From Octopus vulgaris (lineage: Eukaryota): DNA of 64,000 nt. The notes under the pieces were generated by a model that was given only the letters and a program-made list of their open reading frames with translations, made no database searches and was not told the DNA's origin. Shown one piece after another: positions 7,490 through 63,025 of the stretch. Numbering within the stretch: position 1 is the first letter of the stretch; the number at the start of each line of letters is the position of its first letter. The translations under genes were made by a program, and so were the position numbers. The stretch spans positions 18,228,001 to 18,292,000 of the forward strand of contig OX597822.1 of the NCBI GenBank assembly GCA_951406725.2, given 5' to 3'.

Positions 7490-7539
<50 letters not shown>

Positions 7540-7877: not shown

Positions 7878-7967
7878 GATTTCTTCTGATTTAGATTTGA
7901 AAATACTAAGAATCAAACACGGGTATGTTTGATTCTTAGTATTTTCAAATCTAAATCAGAAGAAATC

Positions 7968-8029
7968 TCTGACCTGATGAAGGAAAAGTGGCGTTTTACC
8001 CACAAATCCAGAAACAGACTGTCCTCGGG
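7968..8029 (+). ncRNA. Type I hammerhead ribozyme motif (mirror copy)
   Basis: Same motif on the other arm, with one stem I mismatch (TCTGAC). Confidence 0.75.
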
Positions 8030-8216
8030 TATCGTATATGGATGTGATCTTTCATTGTTTTTCCCTTATACCTATGTGAGTTATTTTTCTGAGTATGCAT
8101 TGTCTGGAGACTTTTATTTGCAGTTGAAGAAATAGCCAAATTTTTGGCTGCTATTTCTGAAAAGTTCGGTGTGTGGTAAAGTGAATTCTTTTCCTTTACC
8201 ATATTTTTATAAATCA

Positions 8217-8219
<3 letters not shown>

Positions 8220-8256
<37 letters not shown>

Positions 8257-8324
8257 GTATGTATATATATATATATGTATGTATATATATATATATGTAT
8301 GTATATATATATATATGTATGTAT

Positions 8325-8358
<34 letters not shown>

Positions 8359-9080: not shown

Positions 9081-9498
9081 CTATGTATGTGTGTGTGTGT
9101 GTGTGGGTGGGTGGGTGTATGTATGTTTGTATGGGTGTATATATGTATGCATGTATATATGTGTGTACATATTACATGTACATCTATATAAATATACATC
9201 TAGACATACATGTATATCTATGGAAATACATCTATACATATACAGCTATATATATATACATATATATATATATACATCCATATATATATACATGTATATA
9301 TAAATAGATGAGTGTATTTTTACCTTGTTAACAATTAACACGGAAAAATAAATAAATAGTTACCAGGGCAGCAAAAATCTCACAAGTAAAGATGTTGTAA
9401 CTCCTTGTTTATAAAGGTTGAAACTTCGTGTTTACGTTGAATATTTTGAATAATATGAATAAAAAATGGAGTTAACGCAGGTTTAAACAAGTATTTTT

Positions 9499-9584
9499 AC
9501 TTTCGACACATGTTTCGAAAATTCCACTGATACTATTCAAAAGAATAAATGGTATAAACAATGCAATCTTCTCTTCGGGAAAGT
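9499..9584 (-). ncRNA. Hammerhead motif in the PLE pseudo-LTR (CCGAAGA core variant)
   Basis: ACTTTC-CCGAAGA-GAAGATT...AATTTTC-GAAAC-ATGT-GTC-GAAAGT. Confidence 0.72.
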
Positions 9585-9787
9585 GAAAAAAACGAAACTC
9601 GTCAATACAACATTTTAGCAAAATATGATGGATTTGTATAGTGATAGACAGAATGCTATTAATATTGTTTAAAAAAAAATGTTATATGATATAACGTCAT
9701 AAGTAGCTAACAGAAAGAGTAGGGATATTAATAGTGAATGTTAAATATAAAGGAAATTAAAGTTTAAATTATATATAATGATAGAGA

Positions 9788-11700
9788 CTACTTATATGCA
9801 CTAAATGTATGTTTCTGCCAATGCTTACATCTGTATGCTCGTTCTATAACCGTGTTTAGTAGAGTATTTTTAGAAAAAATAATGAAAAATAGCTCAGAAT
9901 TGCAGAGAAGACAGAATTTCTTGCCTTTGTCATATGGTATCGAAATTGAGAGGATCAATCATTCTAAATGAAATTGTTCATTGTGGTCTTTTAAATCCCA
10001 AATCAGTTTGCTGAGACTGGTACTATTCCGTTTATTTCTATCCCTAAATGTTGAGTAATGGATAGAAATTCTTTTAGATAACTCTAACGATGTGCTTCCA
10101 ATGTAAAATCATACTTTATTACGAGTACTGATTATACACTGGTATATAGAATTTTTAATCTTAGAGTTACTTGACATAAATTTAATTCTATTGGAATTGA
10201 CTTCAGATACAATAACCTTGTTATTAATATTTCTAGAGGGTTGGATGGTATTAGCTAAATTAATGTTAGTATTAGTAAATGTATTAATATTTAACAGTTT
10301 GTTATTATGAGAAGATATAATTTGCAAGAGATTTTTTGTGTTTGAAAAACCTATCCTAACCTTATGTGAATTAATTATAGAGTAATATCTAGAATTGTTT
10401 GGAAAATTCCTAGCAATAGCTTGACGAAACAGCAGTGGGAGATTAGATTTAATTTGTCTCCCGTAAGGAATTATTAACCAAATATTTTTACTAGTATTCA
10501 TAGCGTAATTACTTCTGAAGGTGTTATATTTACTTTTAGATCGATAATAGGGGATTAAATAAGGGTTATCTGCCTTCATTCGCTCTGTATCGGTGTGTAA
10601 GTTATGTTTGTTATCAATAATTCTTTTATGACTAGAAATCTTATCTACATTATTGAATTTACAATTAGACTGAGCAGAATCAATGTAGAAATTTTTTCTG
10701 TATAACCTGCTTTGATTAAGGCAGAGTTATAGAATTCAGCGTTATTATCAACATTAGCAGATAATTTAGATAATCTAAATGAAATATTCCTAACTAAATT
10801 CTTAGTAATTGCTCCAGGATGATTACTAAATTTGCTAATGTACTTAAGATTGGTCAACGGTTTAGGATATGGGAAGTAAGAGTCACTGTGTAAATTAAGC
10901 GTAATATCTAAAAAGTTGGCCTTTGTCATATCGTCATCAAAAACGATTTTTAAGCCCATTCTACTGAAAAAATTAACTAAACTATTCTTAACTTTTTGTA
11001 CCTTTTGGTTGGAAACATTTTGGAGGTAAAGTAAACAATCATCACGATATAGACCTCCATAAATGTTAGGGAACTCTTCAGCCATTTCAAAAAGAATATA
11101 TATACAGACCAAATCAGCTATCTGTGCTGAATCAGAACTTCCCATTGGTATATTGAAACTATCTGGTGTGTCTTTACGGACCCACAACTTATCAAATTTA
11201 ATAATAGATCTTCTGGCTGCCAACACAACATTAATTTCTTCTCAGGTGAGACCAGCTTTGTTATGAGCAAGCCAAAGTACCTTATTAAGTACTATTGGAT
11301 TAATAGACGAATAAAAATTGGAGATATCAAACTGGATAAACTTAGTACTCACCTTACTGTTAATAGACCTAAACCAGTCAACTACTTCAAATGAATTAGT
11401 CCATAAACTAAGTTTTAATGTTTTGATTAAATTAGGAATATATTTATCTAGTATATTTTTACTAAGGATACCGATGTCAGAGCTAGAAGGGCAGATAAGC
11501 CTTAATGATGGGTTAGTAAAAAAATTTGGTTTGTGATCCTTCAAAATGAACCGAGGTTGCTTAGGAACAAGTGGTTCTGTCTTCATTTGTAGGTTATATT
11601 TCTCCATGATTTTCATAGCCTCAATGTTGGCTTTCTTAAGTATTCTTTTATCAGCAATTTTATACTTTTTCTGAATTTCTTTTTTAAGTAATTCCAAATA
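9788..11700 (-). pseudogene. PLE RT plus GIY-YIG endonuclease ORF, disrupted
   Basis: Reads as one frame once TGA stops at 11242, 10109 and 9959 and a frameshift near 10690 are bridged; C-terminus SIYQCII..FYIGST..STSLSKLIWDLK..FCLLCNSE..LLN..CKH. Confidence 0.88.
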
Positions 11701-11803
11701 ATATAACATTTTTTTTTAAACAATATTAATAGCGTTCTGTCTATTGCTATACAAATCCATCATTTTTTGCTAAAATGTCGTATTGACGAGTTTCGTTTTT
11801 TTC

Positions 11804-11889
11804 ACTTTCCCGAAGAGAAGATTGCCTTGTTTATACCATTTATTCTTTTGAATAGTATCAGTGGAATTTTCGAAACATGTGTCGAAAGT
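11804..11889 (+). ncRNA. Hammerhead motif in the inverted pseudo-LTR (CCGAAGA core variant)
   Basis: Same motif; 6-bp stem I ACUUUC/GAAAGU; GUC triplet. Confidence 0.72.
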
Positions 11890-11954
11890 AAAAATACTTG
11901 TTTAAACCTGCGTTAACTCCATTTTTTATTCATATATATATATATATATATATA

Positions 11955-13106
11955 TATACACTTTTTAATCCGAGGGGAGGCAATGCGAGCAGCAACTAAA
12001 AGAGCACTACAAAATCCACAGAAGGATCAAACACATACATATATTCATATATTCATTTATATCTACAGAACAGATATAAAGCCCGACGTTTAGAAATATA
12101 TAGTAATATATAAATATATAAACATCATATAAAAATATATAAATATATAAGAGAATCAATGTTGCATATATAACAACTTGAATTTGCGCTTAAAGTCGTA
12201 AAACATTTGGTATAAATTTGTTAAATTAAACATTTGGGGTAATAAAACATACAAAGACATATTAAAAAGACGAATTAAAATTCCAGAGAAAAATACATAG
12301 AAGATAAATATACAAATTTACAAAAATACATAAAAGTTCATCTACAGGCCGTTTCAGAGATGCGCCAATTAATATGAAACATATCATATATTTAAAATTG
12401 ACACTCCCCTCGTCAGGATGTTTTTTACACACAACACATGCGAAAGACCAGACATTACGTACTCCCCAAAATTCTCATAGATACTGAATGCTACTTTATA
12501 AGCATATAATTCAATCTAGCAGCCATAGTAAATGGTATGCACACAGCTCCATCTGAACTAATTCACTTCTGCACTTAATTTAATTTTAATCTTTTAATTT
12601 CTCCCATTCATGCAAAGCTACATATTCCAGTTCAAGTCCTTGATACATTTTATACTAATTGCTATTTTTTCTTTTAATTGTTATATTACAATTTAATTAC
12701 CATACTTTAGTTTTATTTTAATAACTACTTACTATATTTACTATATTTAATTCAATTGTTATTATTACCTCTAACTTTTATTGCTATTTTTATTTCTAAA
12801 TTTCTTATGGAACGTCGAGTGGATCTTATGTGTACAATATATTTTTATATGATGTTTATATATTTATATATTACTATATATTTCTAAACGTCGGGCTTTA
12901 TATCTGTTCTGTAGATATAAATGAATATATGTATGTGTTTGATCTTTCTGTGGATTTTGTAGTGTCCTTGTAGTTGCTGCTCGCATTGCCTCCCCTCGGA
13001 TTAAAAAGTGTATACAGCTCATTTGAGCACTACTATTCCAGTCTGTTATATATTTTTAGCGTTGTTGTCACTAACGATCTCAAGATATAACTTTATATTT
13101 TGTAAC
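11955..13106. mobile_element. Non-coding fold-back PLE-type insertion with a hammerhead
   Basis: 11955-12140 is inverted at 12837-13014; ~90-bp tail to 13106; TA tracts on both sides. Confidence 0.75.
12339..12420 (-). ncRNA. Type I hammerhead ribozyme motif
   Basis: CATC-CTGACGA-GGGGAGTGTCAATT...AATTGGCGCATCTCT-GAAAC-GGCCT-GTA-GATG; 14-bp stem II including G-U pairs. Confidence 0.8.
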
Positions 13107-13523
13107 ATATATATATATATATATACATCCTTATACATACAATAGAGTGATGTTTTTGTTTCACTATTAACACGTAATACTGAAATAGTGGAGAAGATAT
13201 GATATTGCTGTGGGCTCGCCCTTGGCAAAAAGTTAAACATTTTTTTTCCCATGACACTACATGGACCCTAATTAAGGCATGTCTAAAATTTGATTGAAAT
13301 TGGTTGTGTAGTTCTCAAGTTTTAGGGAATCATAGTGGAGAAGATATGATATTGCTGTGGGCTCGCCCTAGGCAAAAAGTTATAAATTATTTTTGCCAAT
13401 GACACTCCCCAGACCCTAAGTAAGGCTTGTGTAAAATTTGAATGACATTGGTTGTGTAGTGCTCAAGTTTTAAAGAAACACACAGACAGACAGACAGACA
13501 CACATTCTCAGTTTTATATATAT

Positions 13524-13526
<3 letters not shown>
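13107..13526 (-). mobile_element. Non-autonomous Helitron 5' segment with two ~146-bp tandem units
   Basis: Starts A|TCTATATATATAAAACTGAGAATGTGTGTCTGTCTG like 60029; the unit repeats at 13186 and 13332; no 3' terminator seen. Confidence 0.7.
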
Positions 13527-13586: not shown

Positions 13587-13588
<2 letters not shown>

Positions 13589-14790
13589 TGAGAATGTAGG
13601 TGTGTCAAAGCACATGGTTGGATATATAGAAAATAGAAAAGAGTGAAAAAACTACAGAAGGCTTGTTTTATAAGGTTAAAGAATATATTTAAGTCGTTAT
13701 GTTAGAAGAATGTTATAAAATTTTGCATATAGTAACATAGCTTTTGAAGAAATTACCGGTTTCGTGTTAACTTTTCTAATATCTCAAATGTCTTTACCTA
13801 CGTCATGTCATGTCTTCATTATGCAGTGCAAAGAAGAGTTCCAGGCAGGGGGAGGTAATAAGCGATTTCTTCCGGTATAAGGGAGATAATCGCTTTATAT
13901 TTCTTTTCCCTTATTTAATGAGATGAGTTTCTCTGTATAAGAATGTTAGGATGGTTAAGTTCAGGCTTATATTTTTCAATGAAGAATGTTTTCTTGTTTA
14001 ATCTAATTTGTGTCGGTGTTCCAATAGCACATTGATAGAATGGAAAGATTAAAAATTGTGGAAGTAGTTGCTTTGCACATTTCTCAATATGCTCACTGAA
14101 GGGTATCATTCTGTATTCTCGGAATGCAATCTGTTGTCGATGCAGAGTGCATCTACATCTGAGTGATAATCCCGTGGACCCCACGTAGTTTTGGTGGCAG
14201 CCCGAGCACCTTATGACATAAATTATGTTTTCAGAAGCACAAGTAAAATTAGATTTGATCGTAGTTTTAGGTCCTCCAGGTTAGGTGTGTGTATGTATGT
14301 CTTTGGTGATTTTTTTAATGGTTTCATTTATAATTTGGCTTTTATGTATTTTTGGAAGACCATAGAAGAAGCTAGTTTTGCATTTAAAGTTTGTTAGAAA
14401 GTCAATCTCTTTGGTTGTCAGTTCCTTTTCATGGGGTTTAATTAGTGAGGAGAGAGTGTTCATTATTTTTTGCAGGGTGTAGTTGGTGATTTTTTCATAA
14501 TGTTGATTGTCATCAAGCAAGGAAATTACAAGATTTCTATAGTATAATGTATCCATTATTACAACTGTACTTCCTTTGTCTGCTTCCTTAATGGTTATAT
14601 CTTCATCATTTTGAAGTTCTATCAGTTCCTTCCATTGACTTCATTTTGGTTGGCTCTGCATGGAGTTGGCGTAAATTTGAGTCCTTTTGAGAGGATGTCA
14701 ATTTTTATGTTAGAGAGAAGTTTGGTTGAAAGGTTGATTATCTTCAGTTTTTCCTAGACAGTTAACTCAAATTTTAGCACTGCACAATTT
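13587..14790 (-). mobile_element. Penelope-like element, Neptune-like, with the RT core deleted
   Basis: ITIKEADKGSTVVIMD..FYGLPKIHKS is joined near 14280 to KSNFTCASENIIYVIRCSGCHQNYVGSTG..LHR..FFIEKYKPELN (GIY-YIG). Confidence 0.85.
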
Positions 14791-14971
14791 GGTTTACAGT
14801 TTTTCTGATCCTCTTCTAATAGACGGTTTCGCTTGTAGTTGAAACTAGTTTGGTATATATGTAAATAATGTATTTTAAACATTTATAAATTTTTGAAATT
14901 TAGATGCATTTTCAACAAAACATTTTCCTACATTTTTTTCCTGTGGGGAAATACCACCCCCTCTTTTGTTA

Positions 14972-15872: not shown

Positions 15873-16050
15873 TATAAGGCCAATAAAGCTCCTATTCTTC
15901 CCTTATGCCAGCCACAGTCCAATGATGCTGACTGGTGAACCAGTTTTTCAGAGTTGCATCAATTTGTAGCGTTATGATATAGGATGAATATAATAATAAC
16001 AACAATAATCCTTGGATGGAATTTATAAACACTTAATGCATTGCTACAAG

Positions 16051-16374
16051 TGTTTCCACAAATCACATGACTCTTAAAATCACAGTCCGTATTCCTGGGA
16101 TGATTACAGTTTAGTCCATAGTATCCATGGCCATCCAGTTGATCATCTTCATGGATTAATTTCTTCAGGTGATATAACATTAATGGATGTATACAACAGA
16201 GGGATGCTTAACTCAGTCAACTTTCATATTTGTTAAAAGGGATAAACATCCCTCCCTTAAACATCCATTAATGTTATATCACCTGAGGAAATGAATCCAT
16301 GAAGATGATCAACCAGATGGCCATGGATACTATGGACTGTGACTTCAAGAGTCATGTGATTTGTGGAAACACAT
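16051..16374. repeat. Inverted repeat (16051-16190 vs 16261-16374)
   Basis: Arms are reverse complements apart from a ~29-nt indel and a few substitutions. Confidence 0.85.
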
Positions 16375-16386
16375 GTATATAGTATA

Positions 16387-16782
16387 CTAGCAGTATCACC
16401 CGGCGTTGCTCAGGTTTGTTTCGACCCTTTAGAATTGGAATTTTTTAACAGTAAAAAATTTGCATTCTGTAGCTTGTTATTCTCTTTAAGTGAACATTTT
16501 TCTGGTTGAAATACACCGAAAAATGACGACACAGCAGTAAAAAAATCGTAAAAAATAGGGATTTTCATAGAAAAAAAAAGCACCTTTTTGATGTAAATAA
16601 TTTTTGGTGTTAACATGGTCCGATTTCAATTTTTTCTTCTATGGAAGGAAGAGTAAGCCTTCTTCTATCATACTCTCAATTTTAGTCAACTTGCGCTGCA
16701 GGGACGCGGAGGAGATAGTGTTAGTTGAAGGCTACCAAACCTGCCATACACAGACAACTTCAGTTTTATATATATAGAGAGA
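16387..16782 (-). mobile_element. Non-autonomous Helitron (~396 bp)
   Basis: 5' TC (TCTCTCTATATATATAAAACTG); 3' hairpin CCTGAGCAACGCCGGG then ..CTGCTAG; inserted between A and T with no TSD. Confidence 0.85.
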
Positions 16783-20844: not shown

Positions 20845-22522
20845 CAGTGAATTAAATTGTGTTTCAAATGAAAAAGGCTCCCTGATCATTGGTTGATGGT
20901 ACAGCACTGCTAATATTGGTTTAACTTATGCCAGAGATGACATTATTAGTAGACATTAAGGCCTTGGTCATCACATTATGAGCTTTATTTATTATAGATA
21001 AAACTACAAGTAAATCTAAAAGGAGAAATATAATATTAAATGACCTGAGAAAGAGGAGGAGGAGGAGGAGCTGAATTTTAAAAAGGGCAAGCTAAGTTTG
21101 TTGTAATGAAGGGTTGGCATGGAAGGAAATGTGAACTGTAGAGAATGTCTGGGGATTGTTGTTTGATATTAACAGAATCATCATCATCGTTTAACGTCCG
21201 TTTTCCATGCTAGCATGTGTTGGATGGTTCGACTGGGGTCTGGGAAGCCAGGAGACTGCACCAGGCTCCTGTCTGATCTGGCAGTGTTTCTACAGATGGA
21301 TGCCCTTCCTAACACCAACCACTCTGTGAGTGTAGTGGGTGCTTTTTACATGCCAGGGGAGGCTGGCAATGGCCACAATCGGTTGGTGCTTTTTACGTAC
21401 CATTGGCACGGAAGCCAGTCAAGGCTGCACTGGCATCGACCACATTTGGATGGTGCTTTTTATGTGCCACCAGCACAGGTATCACAACTACAATTTCCCT
21501 TTGATTTTTTGATGCTGATATACTTAACTCAATAGGTCTCCTCAAGCACAGCAGGTCACCCTACAATCCAAGGTAAGCACAGCAGGCCGTCCTGCGATCC
21601 AAGGCACTTTGGATGGGCTGGGGCTTCTATGTGAAGCTGGTGCAGGAAACAACCATGAACTCATACTATTTGTCGGGTCTTCACAGTCACAGCATATCTA
21701 GACACAAAGCCACTAATAATGAACACAAAGTGCAGATATGGCTATAGTCACAGTGATGTATGTGTGTGTGTGTTTGTGTATCTATATATCTATGTTTATG
21801 TGTATGTTTGTGTGTGTATGCACATATGCATGCACACATGAAGTTGTTTTTTCATTCCTTCACATGAGGCAGTCTGAGCTAAAAACATTGTCATTGTGCT
21901 TAAATTCCTGGTGAACTTTGTTGCATAGTTCTACAGTTTTGAAGCTTAGTGGATAAAAAAAGTCTTTCACTTGAAAACCACATCGTTGAGGTTTATGACA
22001 AGAAGGGCATCCAATTATAAAATATTGTATCCACGAAGTATCCATTTAACCTATGCCAGTATAGAAAAGATGGACATAAAATGAATAAACATATGAAAGA
22101 GCACTTCTTTTTTCTTTCTTTCACCAATTTCTAAGATTGAACTTGTAATTGTTTCTAGTGAAACTGAGAAACTAAGACAACATCTCGCAAACCAACAATC
22201 TATTGAATATTAATGGCTTTAAGTAAGATAACACTTGATTAGTTCTGCTGGACATTTTTGTATTCAGCTCAGTTTTCTCTATTGATGTGCAGCCATGAAC
22301 ATCTGCTTGCTGTAGCATTTCAGGTCATTTAATATTATATTTCTCCTTTTAGATTTACTTGTAGTTTTATCTATAATAAATAAAGCTCATAATGCGATGA
22401 CCAAGGCCATAATGTCTACTAATAATGTCATCTCTGGCATAAGTTAAACCAACATTAGAAGGCTGTACCATCAACCAGTAAGCAGGGAGCCTTTTTCAGC
22501 TTAAACACGATTTAATTCACTG
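20845..22522. repeat. Inverted duplication ~203 bp (20845-21048 vs 22320-22522)
   Basis: Direct reverse-complement match; the inner halves are nearly identical. Confidence 0.9.
21178..21700 (-). mobile_element. RTE 3'UTR fragment
   Basis: (CAT)n followed by GTTTAACGTCCG..., three repeat cores and a ..TATGCTGTG..GAAGACCCGAC ORF end. Confidence 0.82.
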
Positions 22523-23319
22523 GTTCTATTCAGTTCAGCTAATTCTAAAGACAGAATTAATAAGAGGTCAGATCAGTAATGATGCCTATCATGCTCAGTT
22601 CCTACATCACAGCAACGAGAAAGACCGATTGTTAGACACAGCCCACTCCACTATCGTTCTCTATTGAAAATTTGATAAAATGCCTGAAATGAAATGTCCA
22701 TTAACAGCTACATTTCCTGTGTAAAGAATAATCTAATTAGATAGCTTGCCACCGAACAAAGGAATCGGATTAAATTTTGTAAAACAGAGGCTGTATTGTG
22801 TAGCCGTATAACTTTGCTTCCTCCTCCATCACTAACACCATTAGCTGACATTTAGCTTGCCTAACTTAATTCAAAGAAATACAGGTTTCAGGAAAATTAC
22901 TATTGCAAGATATTTGGCAAATCTTTCAATAATTTTTGAATGCATTACAATCAGTATTTCATAATCTTAGTTACAATAAAGTTTGTATTAATAATGACTA
23001 CCAAATACAATGGGAAAATATCATGTACCATTATTTTCTAATCATTAGCAGCAGCAACATTGTATTGCCTTCATCCTCGTTACCAGCATCAATGCTACCA
23101 TTTTCATGAACATGATGTAACATTGCTCTCATTCACATTTTTGTCCAGAATACACAAGTGTTGCAGTTTCCTGTGTGGTAGCTTCACTTCCGTAGAACAA
23201 ACAAACAAACCTCTTTTCAACAAATAACTGCTTACTTATACAAGTATTTCACTCTTTATCAACAATCAGCCATCAACGACTTCTCTCCATTGTCCTTAAC
23301 CCTGGGCTGTCTTTACTGC

Positions 23320-23860
23320 TTCTTCTCTCCATTTGGATCTCTTCTTCAATCCAGTTGGGTCTCTGCTTCAATCCATGTGAATTCTTCTCTCCAATTGGAT
23401 CTCTGCTTCTCTGCACTTGGATTACTTCTTCAATCCAGTTGGGTCTCTTCTTCTCTCCAGCTGAATCTCTGCTTCTCTCCGTTTGGATCTCTTCTCTCCA
23501 AATGGATCTTTTCTTCTTGCCACTTGGATCTCTGCTTCAATCCAGTTGGATCTCTGTTTCTCTCCAGTTGGATCGCCTTTTTTCACTCGGATCTCTTCTC
23601 TCCATTTGGATCTTTTCTTCTCGCCACTTGTGACTCTGCTTCTCTCCAGTTGCATCTCTTCTCTCCCCTTGGATCTCTTCTTCTTCTTGTCAGTTGGATC
23701 TCTTCTTCAATCCACTTGCATCTCTGCTTCTCTCCATTTGGATCTCTTCTTCAATCCATTTATATCTCCTCTTCTCTCCAATTGGATCTCTTTTCTCTCC
23801 AGTTAGATCTTTTCTTCTCTGCACCTGTATCTCTGCTTCCTTCCAACTGGATCTCCCCTT
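23320..23860. repeat. Degenerate ~18-21 bp minisatellite (TCTCTGCTTCTCTCCAGTTGGA-like)
   Basis: More than 20 recurrences of TTGGATCTCT..CTTCTCTCCA variants. Confidence 0.9.
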
Positions 23861-24603
23861 CATATGTTACCCAGAGGAAAGACCTTTCTCCCCAAGGTCT
23901 TCATAATTTTGAATCATCATTGATGCTTCTCTTATTTTGATCTTTTCCAGGTAGGGTTGTTGGTCCTATGCAAGTCTATTTTTATCTTTGAACAGAGGTG
24001 GTCTATATTAGACTGCCTTCTGTCCTTTGAACTGTATCTAGCATGAGGTCCCACTTAAAGCTTATGATTCCCTGACACAGTTGTTAGGGTGACAGGCATA
24101 CAAACCCCCTTGCTACAATAAGGACTGCACTTTGTTGCAGATTATTTAATTTATAGGGTTCCAAATATCTTAGGACCTAAATTTTCAAGCACTATAACCC
24201 AGCAAGGAAACCAGGATGACCTCAAGTAATAATGAAAAAAAAAAAAAACTTACAGAATCAAATGGACAAGGAAACCTGTATGTAGTAGCCGGTCCTGCTA
24301 GAAATAGCAGCCAAATCTCTCTCATACAACTTTCTAATGGAAAGGACAAGTTAAGTAATGTTGTTGTACATCCCCTAAAAATTACAGGATGGTCATGGCT
24401 GAATTCCCTTTGATCACGAGTTTGCTTGGTTGATATGACACAGTGGTTCCCTTTTATGGCTTTCCACACTGTGTGGACCCCTTAACTATAATTGATAGGA
24501 AACCCCTGTGACATCAAATGAAGGAAAAACCATTTTAAAGAGAGAATTTATTGATATTGAGATAAAAAGAAAACTATGTAAAAATTGAATTTTCTTTAAC
24601 TCT

Positions 24604-25640: not shown

Positions 25641-25723
25641 CATATATATGAGTGTGTGCACAAAGGAAAGAAAAGGGCAATCAATACATTTAGTAGGAGT
25701 TCCGTGTATTATTATTGAAAACA

Positions 25724-26509
25724 GTTTGAATTGGTTCCATGCAGACTAAAGTTTCCCTGGTTTCTAACAAAAACCCATCTCTTTCAGGCTTAGATTACTG
25801 AAGGATGAGGCAAGAAAGTCCAAGAAGGCTGCTGGAAAATGGGCTGCTATTGGTCAAGGTGGGTCGTCACATGGTGTTGTTAGAGGAAGATCAATTTTCA
25901 GTGAGAGCAGTTTCATTAGAAAGGTGAATTTCTTGGACTGTGTGGCTGGATCGCAAGCTGGTGACACCAAAGTGTCAGGGAGCCAGCAGACAACAAGGCC
26001 ATGGAGTGAGTGAGGGTGTGTGTGTATGCTTTTAGTATTTATATGTGCAGGTGTGACAGATGTATGCTAGTGTGGCAGATCTGGTATTTGTGTGTGTCAA
26101 TGTGACAGATGTATGCTAGTGTAGTCGCAACAGTGTTGTGGGGTGGCGTAGTGAGAAAGCATTCGATTGAGGTCTGGTGGCATGGGGGGAAGAGGAAGGA
26201 GTATACATATATGGACATGTGTGTAGTGTGTGAACGTGTGTGTGTGTGTGTGTGTGTGCATGTGTGCACATATGCATGTATGTGTTTTTGGCTGGTGTGT
26301 GTGGGTGTATATACCACATACCAAAATTAGAAAAAGGTGTTTAACTCCTTTTTCTAATTTCGGTATGTGGTAAAGCAGTTAGCTGAAACCTAATTATAAT
26401 TATGTAGATAATTTTACCTATAAAGGTTATTTTAATGTCCCGATCTACTTGGTAGAATTGTTAATTAATTAATTTAATTGATTAATTTTACCCTTCTATT
26501 ATCAATATG

Positions 26510-26541: not shown

Positions 26542-27580
26542 TACATATATACATGTGCACACACACATATATACACACATGGGCACACATATACATACAT
26601 ACACAAATATACATATATGTATGTTTTTGGTGTTCAAGTATGTGGGTATGTTAGATGACAGTGATTGCAACACTACGACTGGGTGGGGAGGGTGAGAAAT
26701 GGGTGTTGGACTGAGGTTTGGTGATGCAGGGGAAGGGATGAAGGAGCAGTGTGCATACTTAGGTGTGTGTATTTGTGTATATGCATATGTATGCGTGGTT
26801 GTGTGTAGGTGTGTGTGTGCACATAGGTGTTTGTGGATGTGTGTGTTTATGTGCACACGCCATGTTTATGGAGGTGGAAGTAGGGGTTGTAGGGGATGTG
26901 TAAGGTTGTGGGGTCAGTCTGCATAGACACTGGTGGTTGGAAACCCTGTCTTTGGTTTTGGAGAAGCCAACGTTAAGATGGTATATCTGGGTTGTTGGCA
27001 GCCAGTGGTTTGAAGTTCACCAGGAATCCCTCTGGTAGCAGCAATAGGATAGTTCATATCTCTTGCTGACTGATACTGCAGGATGATGAAGGATATGCAG
27101 TCTTTCACAGAGACAGAGCTGGAAATTACAGGTGCCAGGTGAATAAGGGGACACCATATTGATGGTGGTCCATTCAATGCTGGGTGTTGCATTCCAGAAA
27201 TAACAGGAATTCTTTCTATCCCTGCATCTAAGCAAGTGCATGTACTCTGTGTACTTCCCCATGAAACCATTGGCTGCCACACCTATGTAGTGTCATGTGA
27301 TACCACTGGTTGATGTGAGGGTGGGTCCGTAGACGACAGCACTTGAGCTTCCTGTCCAATCATGTGGTCCAAACGTTTCCTGGTTCTAATGAAACAGCTG
27401 TTGTTGATTCATTGGTCTTACACTAACAACACCATGTGACCCGCCTTGACCAATAGCAGCCTATTTTCCAGTTGCCTCCTTGGACTTCCTTTGCCTCTTC
27501 CTTTGGTAATCTGAGCCTGAAAGAGATGGGTTTTTGTTAGAAACCAAGGAAACTTTAAGTTGCATGGAGCCAAATCAAAC
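25724..27580. repeat. Diverged inverted pair ~235 bp (25724-25959 vs 27346-27580)
   Basis: For example TTTCTAACAAAAACCCATCTCTTTCAGGCT vs AGCCTGAAAGAGATGGGTTTTTGTTAGAAA. Confidence 0.8.
26312..26506 (+). mobile_element. Short fold-back PLE-type 3' end (61-bp palindrome plus tail)
   Basis: Palindrome at 26312-26372; TTCGGTATGTGGTAAAG and the tail CTTGGTAGAATT..AATTAATTAATT..ACCC resemble the 7536-8219 element. Confidence 0.6.
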
Positions 27581-28276
27581 CATGTTAAATTATATATACA
27601 TGCATGTATAATTAGTTTATTTTCTGTAGATGTGTGTGTGCACATAAATGCACAAATGTATTTATTTATACATGCATATGTGTGTGTGGGTGTGTGAAAG
27701 CATGTGATTAAATCAGAGCTCAACATTTTACTTTCTTTAATCTGTTCATTTATTTCAATATTCTATTATTTTTAACATTTTTTTTTTTTTGTATTCTAAA
27801 ATAACCATTTGTACATAAAATGGCCTCTGCAGTTCTGTAATATCTGCTTCAACTGATGATGACAAAATACCAAAAGACAAAACCAAAAAATCTAGATTTG
27901 ATTATTCAAGAGTTGTGGTCCTCTACGATTGCTCCACTTATTCATGTCATTGTGTATCAAAATGAAGACTTTGATAAATATCAAACCATCTTCTCATCTG
28001 CCATACAATCTCGTTAAGCATCGTAATCCTTCTCTTTCGACTATATTCTCACTGAAATAGCTCTTTACTTGAATCACTCTGTCTATTTCCCTCCTCCCTC
28101 TCTCCTCTCTTGCTCTGTCTGTCTATCTTTATTTCCTTCTAACAAGCCATCCATTTATCTCTCCATTCATACGTCTGTCTACCTATTTATCTCTATGTTT
28201 ATCTGTCTCTCCCCCTCCCCATATTTCCGGGAATTTTCTATTTCTGTCCATCTATTTGTCTTGTTATCAGTCCGTC

Positions 28277-36607: not shown

Positions 36608-37067
36608 TAAAATTATACTCATGTCACATAAATGTAAATCTAATGTACAGATTAGTAATTTAATTATTGAGCATTAATTGAGACAGCTGTAAGAAGCGAA
36701 GATGACCAATTTGTTGTTAATAAAAAATAATTATTAACTTCCTAATCATCATTTATTTTCTTCTTTTAAATATATATATATATATATATATATATCATAA
36801 GGTTCTAGAAAGATATGGCAGTCCTTTCTCCCTCTACATAGAAAACAACTGGAAGAGATACCTAGATGACTGTTTCATTCTTTGGCATGAAAATATAGAG
36901 AAACTTAAAGAATTCCTAGCACTTTTAAAAGGACTTGACGTAAACATCCAATTCACAATGGAATATAGTCAGCAACAACTCTCCTTCCTTGACATCCTCA
37001 TTAATAAATCTAATAACGCAACAGATATATATACTATAAGCCTACAGATTCCAAGCAATATCTTCCA

Positions 37068-38314
37068 CTAGCAGTATCGCCCGGCGTTGCTCAGGTTGTA
37101 AGGGAAATAACTATATAAGCATTTTTAGAGAGTTATAGCCAAAAAATAGCAAAAAAATGCATTAAAAATTGAAAAAAAATTAAGGTAAATTTTTTTTTAA
37201 ATCGTTGACACATCGTAGATATTTTTAGAGAGTTACTTCCCTTATATAAAAGCGAAAAAAATGCATTAAAATGGAAAAATATGATGGTAAATTTTTTTTA
37301 AATCGTAGACTCATCGTAGACGCGCACTAATACCCAGAAGGGCTCGATATGAATCACGACTATAAGATACCCGGTTTTGGTTAAACTGCACTGCAAAATG
37401 TGGGAGTAGTTACGAATCTAAATCGTAGGAGACAGACACACAACTTCACTCTTATATAAAGATGCTTTTTCTTTTCAGTCATAGAGTTAGATTTATGAAG
37501 GTCTTCAGTAGAAAATCCTTCGAATTCTGACTCGCTGCTTGATATAATGAAATTCGTATCCATTTTTTGTCAGAATTACAAATTTTGAAAACACAATAGG
37601 AACAAATTTCGGAAAAAAATCTCCCATAATTCACGGAATTAAAATTACACTTCGATTTTTGTACAAAACTGTATTTGAAGTGTTTACGAAGTATAATACG
37701 TGTTTTCACGAATGTACTAAAGAGATTTACTCTGATATTCTCATTTAAATATGAATAGGTAAATTCGGGCGGTTTGGTAACGAAAGGGTTAAACGGATGC
37801 ATACATAACTATATATAAGTGTCGTCTGTTTATACATAAACACTGTTTCATACTTTCAGTTTAGTCTTCCTCAAATCACTCTGTCGCTATTTACTCTCTT
37901 CCAAGAACATTTTCACTCACTCTTATCTCTTAGCTTGCCATACATTTTACTCATGTATCTATCAGCGTGATAGACAGAAACAAATATTACATCGCCAACG
38001 CCATCGCATTCTATTGTCTACCTGTCAACACACACGCAGTGAATTAGTTTCACTTTATTTGTTGCACACTGTGTGTGTGCGTTTGCGTGTGCTGTAAACC
38101 AGACTAAGAAAAGCATTTGACATACACACCAGAATGTGAGTTTTCTGTAAATTTTGCTTAATTGGAGTTTAAATTTTAAAAACTGGACCTGGCATGACGC
38201 GATGCATTGTACTCTTAAAACTGCTAGGTAAATTGTAATTGAAGAAATCCTATATTGTAGATTTTTATAACTGACAAAGGGAGGCAGATAAAATCTGCCT
38301 TTTATAATAAGAGA
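37068..38314 (-). mobile_element. Composite non-autonomous Helitron
   Basis: 5' TCTCTTATTATAAAAGGC at 38314; second internal 5' end at 37462; 3' hairpin plus CTAG at 37068; removal restores the PLE frame at A|T. Confidence 0.88.
37463..37792 (-). mobile_element. piggyBac-like left end captured in the Helitron
   Basis: TTAA-CCCTTTCGTTACC terminus followed by an acidic ORF start, MDTNFIISSSESEFEGFSTEDL. Confidence 0.55.
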
Positions 38315-39677
38315 TTCAATTCATGCCACCCCAGACACACCAGAATGAATATCCTCTTCAATCTAGCAAAAAGGATATGTACTATAGTTTCTAATGCAAA
38401 CACCAGAGACACATGACTACATGAACTAAAAGATACCCTCATCACCAGGAACTACCCACCTTCACTAATTGACATATGCATTCAACTCAACATCCAGGAA
38501 CTCAGACATCCTAAATTAAAGAAAAATTTACGAGCAAAAGCCTTACCATACATCTCCACACACAACCCTCTCAACAATGAAGCCTTCGACACCATCCTCC
38601 AAAACATAAAAAAGGACCACAGAATGAACTTAATCCTCCAAACACACACTATTATAAAAAGCAAGAGACAGCCCAAATCTATGAAAAGTCTCCTAACACA
38701 AGCTCACATATGCTCACCAACACAGAAGCCGACAGTAAAAAAATGTGGAAGACCCAATTCTGGGATATGCAATTATCTAATTGAGGGATCAGAGTTCTCC
38801 TTCAAACAGGGACAACGTTTCACAGTGAAAAGCAACTTCACATGTGCTTCGGAGAACCTGATATACACACTAACTTGCTCTGGGTGTCAAAAAAATCATT
38901 TACGTAAAAGAATGGCCCTGCACAGATCCCAGATAAAAATTCCCCAAAACAGAAAAATAACATTCAGCCAACACATAGATATTTGCACCAACAACAAAAC
39001 TCCAAGCTTCAGGATTTTTCCCCCCTACCAATTCAGGGACGATACAACCTGGAGCCAACGAATTAGTAAAGAAACTCTCTTTATTACAAAATACAGGCCC
39101 CTTCTGAACGCATCTACAACAAACGATATATCCACCTCAGCCTTAGAATAACACAAATACACATGCAAATATTACATTCCTAAGAATCCATTAAAAATCA
39201 GCCCCAATCACTGCTATAATCCATAACTTTAAATCATCCAACACCTCACTACTTTCACTCATTCATATTCTCCCTTCTCTTCTTCTTCTTCTTATTCTTC
39301 TCTTCCTCCTCTTCTTCTTCTCCCCCTTTTCCTTCCTTCTCCTTCCTAACTTTATCACTAATGCTTTTTAGTAGAACACCTATGCAAATTCTATAAACAA
39401 AACTTTCAATAGAAATATTTTCATGAATTGAACAGCAACTGCTAGCCTCCACTGACCATTCAAAATACTACAATCAAGGCACTCCCAAATTCTTCCTTCT
39501 TCTCCTCCTCCTCCTTCTTCTTTCCTACTGAGAATTCATAAGGGGGAACCCACAAGAGTAAACATGAGAGACAGAGAAAGGCAGAAACAAGGAAAATGCC
39601 ACTTATATTTGAACACTATACAAATATTCTTTTAAAAAGAACTTTTTTAATTTTTCTAAATTTAATCATTTAATTGT

Positions 39678-41910: not shown

Positions 41911-41993
41911 GGTCCCGGGTTGATTCGGGGTTAACCACAGTAAATAAGGTACTCAATACATAGCAGAGTAAACTTAATTTATTATATAGAAGG

Positions 41994-42044
41994 AGCTTCT
42001 ACAGGACTAGAACTGTTTCATTCAAGAGAAATCATCAGGAAGCT
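41994..42044 (-). ncRNA. Type I hammerhead ribozyme motif (mirror copy)
   Basis: Identical sequence on the opposite strand, overlapping at the central AGCT. Confidence 0.82.
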
Positions 42045-42091
42045 TCCTGATGATTTCTCTTGAATGAAACAGTTCTAGTCCTGTAGAAGCT
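42041..42091 (+). ncRNA. Type I hammerhead ribozyme motif
   Basis: AGCTTC-CTGATGA-TTTC(tctt)GAAT-GAAAC-AG(ttctagtc)CT-GTA-GAAGCT; 6-bp stem I, 4-bp stem III, GUA triplet. Confidence 0.82.
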
Positions 42092-42100
42092 CCTTCTATA

Positions 42101-42139
<39 letters not shown>

Positions 42140-56589: not shown

Positions 56590-56812
56590 TACCCAGTGCT
56601 AGCTATGGATACGTATGAGGTGCAATGGAATAACAGGAAGATTAGCAGAGAGTAGTCTTGGTATGTGACAGATGTGCCTATACAATAAATACTAAGACTG
56701 TACAGGAATAATTGCTTATCATACATATATGTGTATGTATATATATATATATATATATATACATACACATATATGTATGATAAGCATGTATGTATATATA
56801 TGTTTATATATG

Positions 56813-56885
<73 letters not shown>

Positions 56886-56997
56886 GTATGTATGATAAGC
56901 AATTATTCCTGTACAGTCTTAGTGTTTATTGTATAGGCACATCTGTCACATACCAAGACTACTCTCTGCTAATCTTCCTGTTATTCCATTGCACCTC

Positions 56998-57000
<3 letters not shown>
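56590..57000. repeat. Inverted repeat with 114-bp arms (56614-56727 vs 56887-57000) around a microsatellite
   Basis: One mismatch seen; a third 15-nt partial copy at 56772. Confidence 0.9.
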
Positions 57001-57049: not shown

Positions 57050-59975
57050 TTAGTTAGATAGAGTGATAGATAGATAGATAGATAATCAACTACGTATGTA
57101 CTGAGTCACACATGCAAGGTTATATGAAGAATATATGATCAATGATAAGATAAAGTAGACATTTTTCTAAGACTGTGTGAATGTACTGAATGGCTTCTGC
57201 AAAAAATTCTTAATGAATTGAAATTTTCCCTCAGCTGAAGAAAGAAAAAATATCCTGGCAGGATTCGTTAACTACACACACAGAAATTTATGAATAACTT
57301 AATACATTAGCTGAGTAAAAAACATCATCCACATCGTCTTTACTAAATTGATATAAGTTGGTCAAGAAGTTTGTTTTGAAACTACATGCTTCCAGACATG
57401 AACTTTGAGAGAACTTTTGCAAGGTAGAATAGGGTAAGGTTGTTGGGGCCCCTGTTTGGGGAGTGGAGCCTCCAAAGCCCCCCCTCCCTTTGAAGACCTC
57501 CAGGTTCTTCTTTAGATCCCCAAACTAAAGTACTGACTGAAACTGTCATCACTCTTTCATAGGCCTTGATTCCATGGTTTGGTCCAGTTGCATGGGACTT
57601 TTGCAAGTGCTTTCTACTCTTGCCTTCAGGTTGACTAATACTTTACAAGTAATGTTGCCTCAAAGTTTTTCCTATGGAATGGACACAAATATTTGCTCAT
57701 ATGAACATTTTGTTTTTGTTTCTCAACCATGTGCACATCCGTACGAGTAATTATCTTCGATTAAAAAAATTCAGTTTCATCATCAAAACCGTGAAGGCTC
57801 ACATTTTGCTTTCGTTATTCAAGTTACAAAATTGTGTGTTCAGACAAGCACACTGCTTAGAGAAGTCATTGCTTGTGAATGGAATTTCATAGATGGAAAT
57901 TATGCAGAAGTCTGTCGTGTGTGTGCACACATACATGTGTGTGTTTGTGTGTGTGTATATGTATGTATATATGTGTGTATGAGTGTGTGTTTCTATATGT
58001 GTGTGTGTGTGTCCCCATGTCCTTGTCTGTTTTTAAGTGTGTTGTTAAAATGTGTGCCTGAGTGATTCAATAAATACAGATCAATAAAATAATTGAGTGG
58101 AATTAATACCGGGGATAGATGTGATCACCATGGCAAGAGTCCAAAACTGAAACTAGTAAAAGAGTAAAAATAACAAAACAAAACAAATAACAAGATAATC
58201 TCATATAAAGAGTAAAGGATTTTTCTGTTTCCCACCATTTAAAAAAGTTTTTTATTCTTTAATTTTTTACTTTTTGAGAATTTCTTCTCAAATACACCCC
58301 TTTATAAAGTCTGAACCATTTTCTTTTCCACATATTCTTCACTAAAATATACTTGCAGCTAGATGACAAGCGGCCGAGTTGTTAGCAATGCCGGACAAAA
58401 TACTTAGTGGCATTTTGTCCATCCCAACATTCCAAATTTAAATTCCACCATAGTCACCTTAGGCTTTCATCTTTACCGAAATAGGTACCAGTTGCACAAT
58501 TGGGTCTATGTAATTGACTAGGCTCACCACCAAAAAGGCAGGCCTTGTGCCTGGTAGTACAAATAATTGTCTTGCATCATTTGTTCAAGTTCCATATTTT
58601 CTGAATTCATTGTTTCAGGGCTTTTCACTGTCTCAGGGCTGATAAAATGAAATACCAATCAGATATGAAGGCACATGGCCCAGTGGTCAAGGTGTTACAC
58701 CTACGATCTGGCAATCATGGGTTCAGTTCCTGAACCAGGTGTCATTTTGTGTTCTTGAGCAAAACACTTCACTTCATTTTGCTGAAGTACTGTGTGGTGA
58801 ATAGACCCAACATTTCCTACACATGTCATAAAAGGCAGCAAAAAGACGTCGAGGTAGGATTTTCACTTCAACCTTGTAAAATCCTCTCACCAGCAACAAC
58901 TATCCAAACAGACCCATGGTTTGGAAGGTTGTTGCCTGAGTGGTACAAAGGTGTCATCTGCCAGGGGTCGTAAGGAATCTCTAACAAATGGTGGATGCAG
59001 TGGTGCACTGTTACAGTGCATGCTCCCATGCTGCTGCTGCTACTACCACTACTATTACTAAATACAGGAGTTGATAATATCAATTGACCTTCTTCCTTCA
59101 AAATTGCTGGCATTGTGCCAAATTCAGAAATTATTATTTTCCACCATTCAAACTGAATATATGATTAATTATCCGATAAAATATACATTGATAAAATTAT
59201 ATCTTGCTCTAATAACTTCAATAAATTAAGAATTAATTAAAAAAATAAGATTAATTCTTATTCCTAAGGTGAAATCTAAACATGTCCATTGATAGCAATG
59301 ACCTTGCAAAAAAAGATCAAATTTCCCTTGAAGCGGAGGAATGAAATTATTTTTTTAATTAATTCCCAATTTATTGAGATTTTCACTGCTTTTCTTTGTG
59401 AGTCACAAATGAATGCTGTTGCGTTTTTTTTTTCCTCTCAAACTACGCAGAAGATATCAAGTCATTAAGATTTTTGACTGCGTATGTATATGTGTATATG
59501 TGTGGACTCATGTCTCTGTATGCGTGTGTGTGCACTCATATGTCTGTAATATAAAAGTATATTTTATCTTCTAATTGGTTGGATAGTCATTAAATATGCT
59601 TGAAAATATTACAACTTTGTTTCTAGGGTAAACTATCTTTTTGCATGGAATATGTTCAAAAGAGTATCCAGGAGACCTGGCAAGAGACTTTTAAATGAGG
59701 AAATAACAAAAAACAAAAACAATAATTAGAAGGGACTGGAAAAAAAAATACTTCAATTGTATTATTATATTTGAGCAATTCAAACCCTTTTCCCTTTTTA
59801 CTGGTTTCAGTTATTCAGCTGATGACATGATGGGCTATGCAAAGTTTTTTTTTCTCTGTTTTGGCATGGTTTCTATAGTTGGACGTCGTTTCTATTGCCA
59901 ACCATATTACAGTGTGTACTGGGTGATTTTTTTCAAGGCACCAGCACCTTCAAAGACAGGACAAAGTACCCCCTG

Positions 59976-60021
<46 letters not shown>

Positions 60022-60028
60022 CTTGACA

Positions 60029-60288
60029 TCTCTCTATATATAAAACTGAGAATGTGTGTCTGTCTGTCTGTCTGTCTGTCTGTGTGTTTCCCTAAAACTT
60101 GAGAACTACACAACCAATTTCATTCAAATTTTACACATGCCTTAATTAGGGTCCATGTAGTTTCATGGGCAAAAAAAATGTTCAAATTCTTGCCTAGGGC
60201 GAGCCCACAGCAACATCATATCTTCTCCACTATTTCAGTATTACATGTTAAAAGTGAAACAAAAACATCTCTCTATTGTATGTATATG

Positions 60289-60319
<31 letters not shown>

Positions 60320-61267
60320 TACAAAATATAAAGTTATATCTTGAGATCGTTAGTGACAACAGCGCTCAAAATATATAACAGACTGGAATAGTAGTGCTCA
60401 AATGAGTTGTATATACTTTTTAATCCGAGGGGAGGCAATGCGAGCAGCAACTACAAGGGCACTACAAAATCCACAGAAAGATCAAACACATACATATATT
60501 CATATATTCATTTATATCTACAGAACAGATATAAAGCCCGACGTTTAGAAATATATAGTAATATATAAATATATAAACATCATATAAAAATATATTGTAC
60601 ACGTAAGATCCTCTCGACGTTCCATAAGAAATTTAGAAATAAAAATAGCAATAAAAGTTAGAGGTAATAATAACAATTGAATTAAATATAGTAAATATAG
60701 TAAGTAGTTATTAAAATAAAACTAAAGTATGGTAATTAAATTGTAATATAACAATTAAAAGAAAAAATAGCAATTAGTATAAAATGTATCAAGGACTTGA
60801 ACTCGAATATGTGGCTTTGCATGAATGGGAGAAATTAAAAGATTAAAAATTAAATTAAGTGCAGAAGTGAATTAGTCCAGATGGAGCTGTGTGCATACCA
60901 TTTACTATGGCTGCTAGATTGAATTATATGCTTATAAAGTAGCATTCAGTATCTATGAGAATTTTGGGGAGTACGTAATGTCTGGTCTTTCGCATGTGTT
61001 GTGTGTAAAAAACATCCTGACGAGGGGAGTGTCAATTTTAAATATATGATATGTTTCATATTAATTGGCGCATCTCTGAAACGGCCCGTAGATGAACTTT
61101 TATGTATTTTTGTAAATTTGTATATTTATCTTCTATGTATTTTTCTCTGGAATTTTAATTCGTCTTTTTAATATGTCTTTGTATGTTTTATTACCCCAAA
61201 TGTTTAATTTAACAAATTTATACCAAACTAGCACTATGACCCTGCAACGCCAGGTCATAAATGGTAG
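60029..61267 (+). mobile_element. Non-autonomous Helitron carrying PLE-derived, hammerhead-containing cargo
   Basis: A|TC 5' end; 3' hairpin TATGACCCTG-CAACG-CCAGGTCATA then GTAG|T; 60029-61227 is an inverted copy of 12206-13526; the flanks rejoin as one SINE-like repeat (compare 35961 onward). Confidence 0.8.
61013..61094 (+). ncRNA. Type I hammerhead ribozyme motif
   Basis: CATC-CTGACGA-GGGGAGTGTCAATT...AATTGGCGCATCTCT-GAAAC-GGCCC-GTA-GATG. Confidence 0.8.
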
Positions 61268-63025
61268 TTGTTTGATAATTATAAAACAAGCATCACTGTT
61301 ACTGAAGCAGTATCTTCATTCCCAGTCCCGTGTGAAAACATGTCTGGCAGTGGGGAAGGAACCAGGTGAGGGTTGGTGTTAGGAGGGGCATCTCGCCATA
61401 GAAAATCTACTTGAATGAATTCTGTTTGATCCATTCAGTCATGGAGAAGTGGGCATTAAATTGTTAATGATGATGGTAGCAGCAGTAGCAGCAGAGGTAG
61501 CAGTTGCAACAATGTTGATGCTGGAGAAGGACCAAGTTGACTTTTGTGATATTTGGATTCAGAATGGAAAGAAACTGAAATGTTAGCCTTGACTTCATAA
61601 ATCACACTTATTCTCTTCAATTGTTCTGATAAATGCTTCCAAAAGTATTTTTCTTTAAATCTTCAAATATTGATTGTTTTCATTGGCACAAAAGCCAATT
61701 ACATTGCCCCCCCAGTCTTATAAAATAAAATTTGGAACGATGTTGCAGTAGAGTTTGAACTCATGATGTAAACAACTGAAACAAATCAGTAGTCTAACTG
61801 CTGGACACTCTGAGGTCAATTCCCACCACTTCTCTAACATTCGGTGACAATGATTTCACTCTCATATCTCTTCCATTTAATGCTGTGCTTTTGTACAAAC
61901 ATTATTTTATTCTTTATAAAAAAAAATCTCCCCTCCTTCCCCCATTCCAGGTTATACCCCACCCCCACTGATTCTCTTCTAAAATCATTTCTTGTCACTG
62001 AATTTTTTTTTTTTACCTAATTTTAGAACCCCTATTGTTCTGCCACTCCTTATTCCAAGTTTACACTGTTTCCCCCACCCATCTCCGGCTCTTTCCACAT
62101 CTTTTCACTCTCATCCTTTTACTCTGTTTTTCCTGGGGTGGGGGGAAGGAGGATTTACCATTTATTTTTATCTGGCTTTCATTATATTTCTTTTTTTAAT
62201 TTCTTACATTTTCTATCTTTTCAAACCAGTCTTGTCTTTTAACATCTTTCATTCTTTCTTGTACTTCCTTTCTACAAAGTTATTTATTTCTTTAGATATT
62301 TTTCACTTTTTTTTTGTCTTTTCCCTGACCCCTATTCACCTTTATTTTTCATTCTCCATTTTTTATTTGTGTCTTTAATTATCTGTTAATCTTATTTTGA
62401 AAAAGAAAAACTTTAATAAATAAACAGTTCTTTGCTTTCCAGAGGCCGCCTGTTCCCTTATCTCCACCTATTGTCCACCCAGCTCTCTCACTGCTCTCCT
62501 TCTTATCTCATTATATCAAGACAGATATCACTGGTTGGTTGGGGTTGGGGTGTAATTCTGTATAAACTTTAATGATGTCAGTCCACTACCTTTATCCTTA
62601 CAACTGCACCCATCCCTCCTTTGTTAACAATCTAACCAACAGCCTTGTTGTGGTGAATTTTTTTCTTTTTTCTTCAATGGTTTCTAGTTTTTTTTTTTTC
62701 CCCTTTATTCTTCTGCTTATTCATATTCTATCATCCAGAAAACAATTCTTTCTTTTATCTAACTAAACTAAGAGGCAGGTAGGAGTGGTTTTGCCACCAG
62801 GGTTTTAACCTCTCCTAGATAGTTCTAATTAGCTGACGACTGTTTCTGTCTTTAAGAAAGATCAAAGTTTAACTGAGGAAATATTTCAAAAAAAGATAAT
62901 TATTATTATTTATTGGCCACAAGGACAGAAAAATACATTTAGGACAATGCAAAGAAAAAGGACAGAGAATAACAATTAACAAGGAAATTCCCAGTTGGGT
63001 GGGTGGGGGGATGCCATCCAGGTCA

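Follow-up and report, generated by a model that had tools for sequence, protein, structure and literature searches.

Most of the features examined place the segment at 60029–61267 of the window (the whole stretch of DNA analyzed here, 64 kb of repeat-rich animal DNA with 35% GC, whose repeats seem octopus-like) among the canonical, non-autonomous Helitrons that have captured cargo. Our preferred reading, to which we assign a probability of a little under 60%, is that this element (copy A) is a Helitron inserted at A/T, the slash marking the insertion point, that it carries as cargo a hammerhead motif likely to come from a Penelope-like element (PLE), and that its mirrored terminator was likely dropped in as a separate, portable piece. 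A related structure without this terminator, copy B, lies at 12 kb in inverted orientation. The coordinates of both copies, of their parts and of the elements used for comparison are collected in Table 1.

Table 1 Features of copy A, copy B and neighboring or control elements in the window
Feature	Coordinates	Strand	Remarks
Copy A, whole non-autonomous Helitron chimera	60029..61267	+	between A60028 and T61268, without target duplication
Helitron left end (TC, TA-rich) with (GT)/(GTCT)n tract	60029..60084	+	start same as Helitron at 16782
Single ~147-bp internal unit, very abundant repeat	60085..60231	+	copy B holds two
Helitron-side body with TA tract	60232..60409	+	~5% divergence from copy B; 9 substitutions in 60231-60414
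Arm 1, inverted copy of PLE-like 3' end, from a TATA	60410..60595	+	97.8% to 11955-12140
Spacer between arm 1 and hammerhead, without ORF	60596..61012	+
Type I hammerhead motif	61013..61094	+	descriptor search
T-rich tail, cut at A61227	61095..61227	+	copy B identical over 61096-61227
Mirrored terminator, inner hairpin with GCAACGC	61227..61268	+	last 8 nt decayed in copy A
Interrupted host repeat, left half	60018..60028	+	alignment to window copies
Interrupted host repeat, right half	61268..61431	+	BLAST, alignment
Copy B	11955..13526	-	left end in TA tract, two units, 65-nt continuation, then (TA)n; no terminator
Copy B parts	arm 1 13014-12837; hammerhead 12420-12339; empty A12206/T12205; arm 2 12140-11955	-
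Broken PLE adjoining copy B (RT, GIY-YIG-like end)	9453..11935	-	RVT_1 E=9e-4, below curated cut-off
PLE remnant upstream of copy B	13587..14800	-	GIY-YIG E=0.04, weak
Control, ordinary non-autonomous Helitron	16387..16782	-	same left end, GCAACGC hairpin, CTAG/T, no mirrored left arm
Control, second ordinary Helitron	37068..37462	-	at A/T within PLE reading frame, no mirrored left arm

The 5'-TC of copy A directly follows host A60028, and its right end reads GTAG, three of the four letters of CTRR, before host T61268, with a GC-rich hairpin ~10 nt upstream. These ends match those of the two ordinary Helitrons of the window in the left end, the GCAACGC hairpin and the short spacer, the ordinary elements ending in CTAG/T. 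Copy A interrupts a host repeat that we take to be SINE-like. In all three aligned host-repeat copies of the window the empty site reads ...T(G or A)ACA straight into the sequence to the right of 61267, and comparison with these copies reveals no target duplication. An earlier note on this DNA had claimed that the flanks rejoin at A/T as one older repeat without a duplication, and that a Helitron-ended element with a PLE-type hammerhead had moved as a unit; the three host-repeat copies bear out the former, and the precise TC...TAG ends at A/T together with the rejoining empty site uphold the latter. The internal unit has a summed contig depth 44–118 times the cargo median in all four public runs described below, and a 21-mer from it gave 0 matches in prokaryote genomes and metagenomes. 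Two further features of the ordinary Helitrons were observed: the element at 37068–37462 (-) has two ~100-bp units and lies in a PLE reading frame that spans 36724–39151, and an inverted repeat at 16045–16377 (76%, ~290 columns) reaches to within 9 bp of the element at 16387–16782, on its right-end side.

Copy A and copy B are inverted near-copies, as had been noted for 60029–61227 and 12206–13526: BLAST aligns 61227–60085 with 12206–13332 at 96.4% over 1143 columns, and the homology reaches the 5' end of each copy (60029 and 13526); on the other side the last letters in common are ATACCAAA (61227/12206). Past this point copy B continues with a T, 65 nt and then arm 2, which is an inverted copy of arm 1, whereas in copy A there follow 40 self-complementary nt. 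Apart from TA tracts, the alignment detects no homology between the two loci beyond the element ends. The previously reported unit counts, one in copy A and two in copy B, are correct, but the period is ~147 bp and not 146 bp. Since arm 1 must have arisen together with arm 2, the structure of copy B is older than that of copy A, and the 12-kb form shows the A/T site empty, in line with the claim that the terminator was gained inside the cargo.

Contigs of four public runs, one best run for each of four organisms drawn from 24 runs, were compared with 59900–61600. The cargo is present in many copies: the median summed depth of its 14 bins is 195, 527, 558 and 248 times that of the first right-flank bin, a ratio that is not a copy number. 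Depth rises to several times the cargo level at 60356–60412, 60470–60526 and 60641–60697, and these spikes may be simple-sequence matches, a more abundant relative or blocks shared with the main Helitron body; a joint between 60234 and 60649 is found in two of the four runs.

Among the 32 pieces listed (18,115 more exist), two cross the junction between cargo and terminator. Record 23 (61115–61250) extends 23 letters past the junction and shows, over its 136 letters, 8 differences and a single gap. Record 31 (61139–61242) extends 15 letters past it and shows 6 differences and two gaps over 104 letters. Both overrun the junction by less than the 31-letter threshold, and the continuation present in copy B would mismatch at 21 of the 23 letters and at 15 of the 15, respectively. 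These contigs differ from copy A by 6–8%, compared with 0.9% between the two cargos of the window. Record 31 is assigned to a paralogue because its run also holds the right flank of copy A (61379–61548) with 1 difference in 170. A contig of run X1 joins 60536 to 61219, the shorter side having 29 letters, and reads as a deletion derivative that keeps the junction; it has a 14-letter filler copied from sequence beside the junction, which we assume to be of the kind left by polymerase-theta end joining. A second deletion derivative in X1, 60386–61026, removes the first half of the ribozyme core. Records 8, 22 and 24 end at 61227, and two of them continue with 150–166 unlike letters. None of the contigs in the four runs covers a whole element, and neither a full-length copy besides copy A nor a solo terminator with rejoining flanks was seen among them.

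The end that copy A gains at the junction is a mirror of the Helitron terminus. Starting at 61227, 15 nt repeat the last 15 nt of the Helitron family in reverse complement, and the symmetry begins on the A of the A/T that is empty in copy B. Both arms lie within the 41 bases of the mirrored terminator, and 61227–61268 forms a single hairpin when folded as DNA (-8.7 kcal/mol, z -3.4, equaled by 2 of 200 shuffles), which agrees with the earlier description of copy A as stopping at the same A/T and gaining a self-complementary end. Neither control Helitron has such a mirror, the letters upstream of its hairpin bearing no relation to its end. The majority end after 61259 in the contigs is GTGCTAG/T (57–82 contigs with varied flanks, in 4/4 runs), for which reason the GTAG of copy A is read as decay; the contigs that diverge behind 61259 share GTGCTAGT, which completes 15-bp arms.

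Contig matches that begin exactly at 61227 after unrelated DNA number 36 in X1, 29 in X5 and 31 in X8, counts of loose ends that were taken among the matches listed (24 of 961), where X3 has no row for 61227. The left-side loose ends at this position have an agreement of 0.46–0.49 and medians of 28, 130 and 117 nt (X1, X5 and X8), and the depth of the terminator bin is 4.5–7.9 times that of the adjoining tail bin. That these contigs are ordinary Helitron ends in reverse is disfavored, since a reversed end would match 15 letters only. Pieces that short evidently do not enter the comparison, since chance matches of 15–16 letters would give a depth of 1,800–6,200 in a flank bin where 25 is observed; furthermore, the loose end near 61242 expected of reversed ends is absent among the matches listed. 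The mirrored end therefore has many different left neighbors, which could be bodies of many subfamilies instead of empty targets. Derivation of the inner hairpin of copy A by CpG decay of a perfect one is unsupported by the contig change counts, in which exact-word seeding may introduce a bias, and an origin of the mirror by fold-back into the flank was set aside, the symmetry here ending at A/T. Metagenomes gave 0 matches to the terminator pattern, and in viral contigs a 16-mer was found at three loci, none of which runs on into the hairpin, and was taken as chance.

According to the preferred reading, a truncated PLE with an inverted 5' copy would have inserted at a TA site 3' of a Helitron left end, giving the 12-kb structure. 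In an aborted integration, the right end of a donor (CTAG) alone would be joined to a target T, and the free A of the target would pair with the joined T and prime copying of the right end back to the hairpin stem. Once the flap of the remaining donor had been displaced and cut, what stayed behind between A and T would be a 39-bp near-palindrome, its loop in the original direction. A mirrored piece of this kind would constitute a complete terminator, and one that landed in a PLE-like tail would found an A-type element, in which left end and new terminator would form a unit moved in trans by RepHel, as extrapolated from work on Helraiser; an autonomous RepHel partner was not seen in the DNA examined. 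Later, gene conversion between the two inverted neighbors would homogenize 60415–61227, with the ribozyme riding as a passenger. In PMC4778049 the left end is described as essential, the hairpin as terminating transposition and the ends as bypassable, and new 3' ends in bats are said to arise from downstream 5'-truncated Helitrons; according to PMC5876387, only the plus strand of a Helitron is transposed. The present arrangement suggests that stray terminators may let Helitrons capture fresh cargo. The wider proposition, that aborted integrations leave 39-bp mirrored right ends genome-wide as ready terminators for any upstream left end and its cargo, is advanced tentatively and with the odds somewhat against it.

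A different account of the same observations would be that the mirrored end arose once and is the normal right end of a large Helitron family, solo or truncated copies of which would play the same part. The cargo would then have been acquired when ordinary read-through ran on as far as a copy downstream or one truncated at its 5' end, and the different left neighbors would be truncated copies or other captured bodies. The several-fold excess of terminator over cargo depth is compatible with this, as are the inner-hairpin letters of the contigs, which match the window (no T>G at 61243, 4/4 runs), and the new ends described for 5'-truncated bat Helitrons in PMC4778049. We nevertheless regard it as unlikely. 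In 29–36 contigs per run the boundary on the left is one and the same base, the mirror of the CTAG/T junction. It coincides with the empty A/T of copy B, and random truncation would not choose this base; moreover, the origin of the mirror would still have to be accounted for.

The divergence between the two copies bears on whether copy A came directly from the 12-kb locus. It is stepped, with 18/302 differences in 60085–60414 versus 7/813 in 60415–61227 (Fisher p=3e-6, and p=9e-4 when the tandem unit is left out), and there is no difference over the last 132 nt to 61227. Eighteen positions with a clear majority letter were taken from the contig variant table, among 40 of 70 rows listed. At 10 of the 12 in 60415–61227 (span 60458–61202) both copies share the rare letter, and at 5 of the 6 in the 5' part copy B carries the majority letter. 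In addition, ~40 nt at 60994–60997 are absent from both copies and present in contigs of several runs, in which a 36-nt segment was observed between two TCGC repeats just 5' of the hammerhead. The shared rare letters, the shared 40-nt gap and the stepped divergence suggest that the two cargos are recent private sisters within older, separately diverged elements. We infer gene conversion between the inverted neighbors as the best explanation of the near-identical 60415–61227; a crossover inversion of the 47 kb between the copies is excluded, since the two flanks of copy A still belong together.

The 12-kb locus, which had been called a pre-capture locus, thus appears to preserve the ancestral structure without being simply the parent of copy A: the structural part of that claim stands, and the literal parentage is not supported, given the step in divergence and the junction contigs that are 6–8% off. 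A direct origin, with the terminator gained at 12 kb and the element moved 48 kb as one piece, would fit the proximity of two cargos only 0.9% apart that have 10 rare letters and the 40-nt gap in common, as well as the empty A/T in copy B, and the very abundant unit family could have converted the 5' part later. This origin predicts even divergence, however, instead of the observed step and the difference of one versus two units; the same junction occurs in the 6–8% diverged contigs, and the decay of the last 8 nt of the copy A terminator fits an old insertion. We consider it quite unlikely.

The hammerhead of the cargo is likely derived from a Penelope retroelement, as its architecture indicates. 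No reading frame is present in the cargo at 60321–61227, and thus no RT and GIY-YIG frame, on account of which the cargo is called PLE-like rather than PLE and its origin is argued from architecture. Copy B has the hammerhead near its 3' end, an inverted 5' copy and a TA target, and the same fold-back plan is found in the RT-bearing neighbor at 11935–9453, which carries at its 5' end a 238-bp inverted copy (97%) of its 3' end. PMC4209133 describes metazoan PLE motifs with the same hammerhead plan of short helix I, long helix II and short helix III. According to PMC8557442, PLEs characteristically have inverted 5' copies and TA targets, and the fold-back of copy B between TA tracts fits these traits. 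The RT-bearing neighbor lies within the TA tract that directly follows copy B, and its repeat contains a degenerate hammerhead-like GAAAC-ATGT-GTC stretch. For the spacer at 60596–61012, tblastn returned no match with E<0.6 to the PLE peptides of the window, and descent of this A-rich stretch from an ancient inverted duplicate of the tail was ruled out, 199 of 300 shuffles scoring as high.

Elsewhere in the 64 kb there are five further fold-back palindromes (5373–5736, 7473–8350, 26312–26372, 41975–42110 and 56614–57000), one of them perfect over 136 bp and several starting or stopping at TA tracts. Inverted pairs of ~200 bp placed 1.3–1.5 kb apart, 20845–21048 with 22320–22522 (94%) and 25705–25921 with 27384–27600 (83%), are possibly TIR elements or more fold-backs. 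A degenerate short-period tandem array at 23316–23862 yields long open frames on the + strand.

Type I features are present in the motif, namely the core CUGANGA, GAAA, NUH and three helices. Helix I has 4 bp, the core reads CTGACGA/GAAA, helix III has 3 bp, and helix II is long (14 bp plus an inner hairpin), with the cut predicted after GTA at 61090. The hammerhead descriptor matches the window at 61017(+) and 12416(-) only; controls at the same stringency gave 0 in 40 window shuffles and 0/1000 element shuffles, and a looser stringency gave a mean of 0.1 in window shuffles. Each element has one hammerhead, and there are no tandem units each with a hammerhead. Rfam returned no match for 60950–61300, probably owing to the long helix II, and the 150 window matches listed, out of 186, include no hammerhead. 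A G-C pair closing helix II at the core is important in type I hammerheads. Here the closing pair is G61024·T61077 (G·U) in both window copies and not G-C, whereas C occupies 61077 in 84–91% of the contig depth, so that the earlier wording of an intact-looking ribozyme is accurate for the core letters and fails at this position.

The ribozyme is likely a passenger, given its single motif, 3-bp helix III and weakened core-closing pair. That it is kept by selection, being transcribed and cleaving or circularizing like a retrozyme so that RNA and DNA mobility are combined, is very improbable. The core letters are intact in both copies, the five variant rows within 61013–61094 preserve the fold and none falls on a core letter (among 40 of 70 rows listed), and copy B lacks a Helitron terminator, its PLE-like 3' end lying in a TA tract, all of which speak for selection. 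Variant rows are, however, at least as frequent in the motif (5 over 82 nt) as in the cargo (34 over 796 nt), again among 40 of 70 listed, both copies have the G·U pair, copy A is without a PLE 3' end, and the deletion contig 60386–61026 has lost half of the core. Furthermore, single hammerheads with a 3-bp helix III are thought to require dimers (PMC4209133), and each element here has one. Segmental duplication, finally, is rejected, as the homology does not outrun the element, the cargo is a repeat and the junction recurs in diverged contigs; the earlier note had set a single-copy junction and homology past the termini against its own proposal, and the junction is found in records 23 and 31 and in the joint 60536–61219.

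Copy A resembles canonical Helitrons (Helitron1; Helibat/Helraiser, Heli1Xen1), as described in PMC4778049 and PMC12001565, in its 5'-TC, its TA-rich left end and the 3' hairpin placed a few bases before (C)TAG, and likewise in A/T insertion without duplication, lack of an ORF, captured sequence and new 3' ends. Helibat termini are described in PMC4778049 as having no inverted repeats beyond the short hairpin, whereas in copy A the last 15 nt are mirrored 5' of the hairpin, and the mirrored unit borders many unrelated sequences. The cargo differs as well, being a retroelement ribozyme motif instead of a gene fragment.

Helentrons, HINEs and DINE-1 have subterminal inverted repeats near the 3' hairpin, internal tandem units and a microsatellite; their target is TT, and a repeat on the 5' side pairs with one on the 3' side. 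Copy A has inverted repeats near its 3' hairpin, internal units and a microsatellite in common with them, but it is TC...TAG at A/T and holds both arms in its last 41 nt. With the pseudo-LTR hammerheads of PLEs (minimal type I HHR) the cargo shares the short helix I, long helix II and short helix III (PMC4209133) and the T-rich tail, inverted 5' copy and TA target (PMC4209133, PMC8557442). Unlike them, the cargo lacks an RT or GIY-YIG frame and has a much longer helix II (14 bp plus inner hairpin), and copy A carries a Helitron terminator in place of the PLE 3' end. Non-LTR retrozymes, thought to be PLE-derived, are similarly non-coding repeats with a type I hammerhead (bioRxiv 10.64898/2026.07.22.740005); copy A, in contrast, is not tandem, has one ribozyme and, judged from its ends, DNA rolling-circle mobility. 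Copy A is thus neither a retrozyme nor a PLE. Our literature search, incomplete for subscription journals and covering PMC6431247, PMC12001565 and PMC13282606 among others, turned up neither a hammerhead carried by a Helitron nor mirrored ends standing alone, and no paper with five short motifs.

Helitron capture is already known, and a ribozyme that rides along with it is a curiosity. The terminator, however, could bear on two open points of Helitron biology, i.e., how new 3' ends are gained, and how joining and repair of the transposed single strand proceed at the target. With a mirrored end beginning precisely on the target A, the intermediate to be predicted is one in which the right end is joined first and the target 3'-OH primes on it. 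If this is true, solo footprints would give Helitrons a way of capturing cargo that has not been described, and would preserve in the genome the order in which strands are transferred; a Penelope ribozyme would here have shifted from RNA-based to DNA-based spread. The case also cautions against reading dispersed genomic hammerheads as signs of retrotransposition or function.
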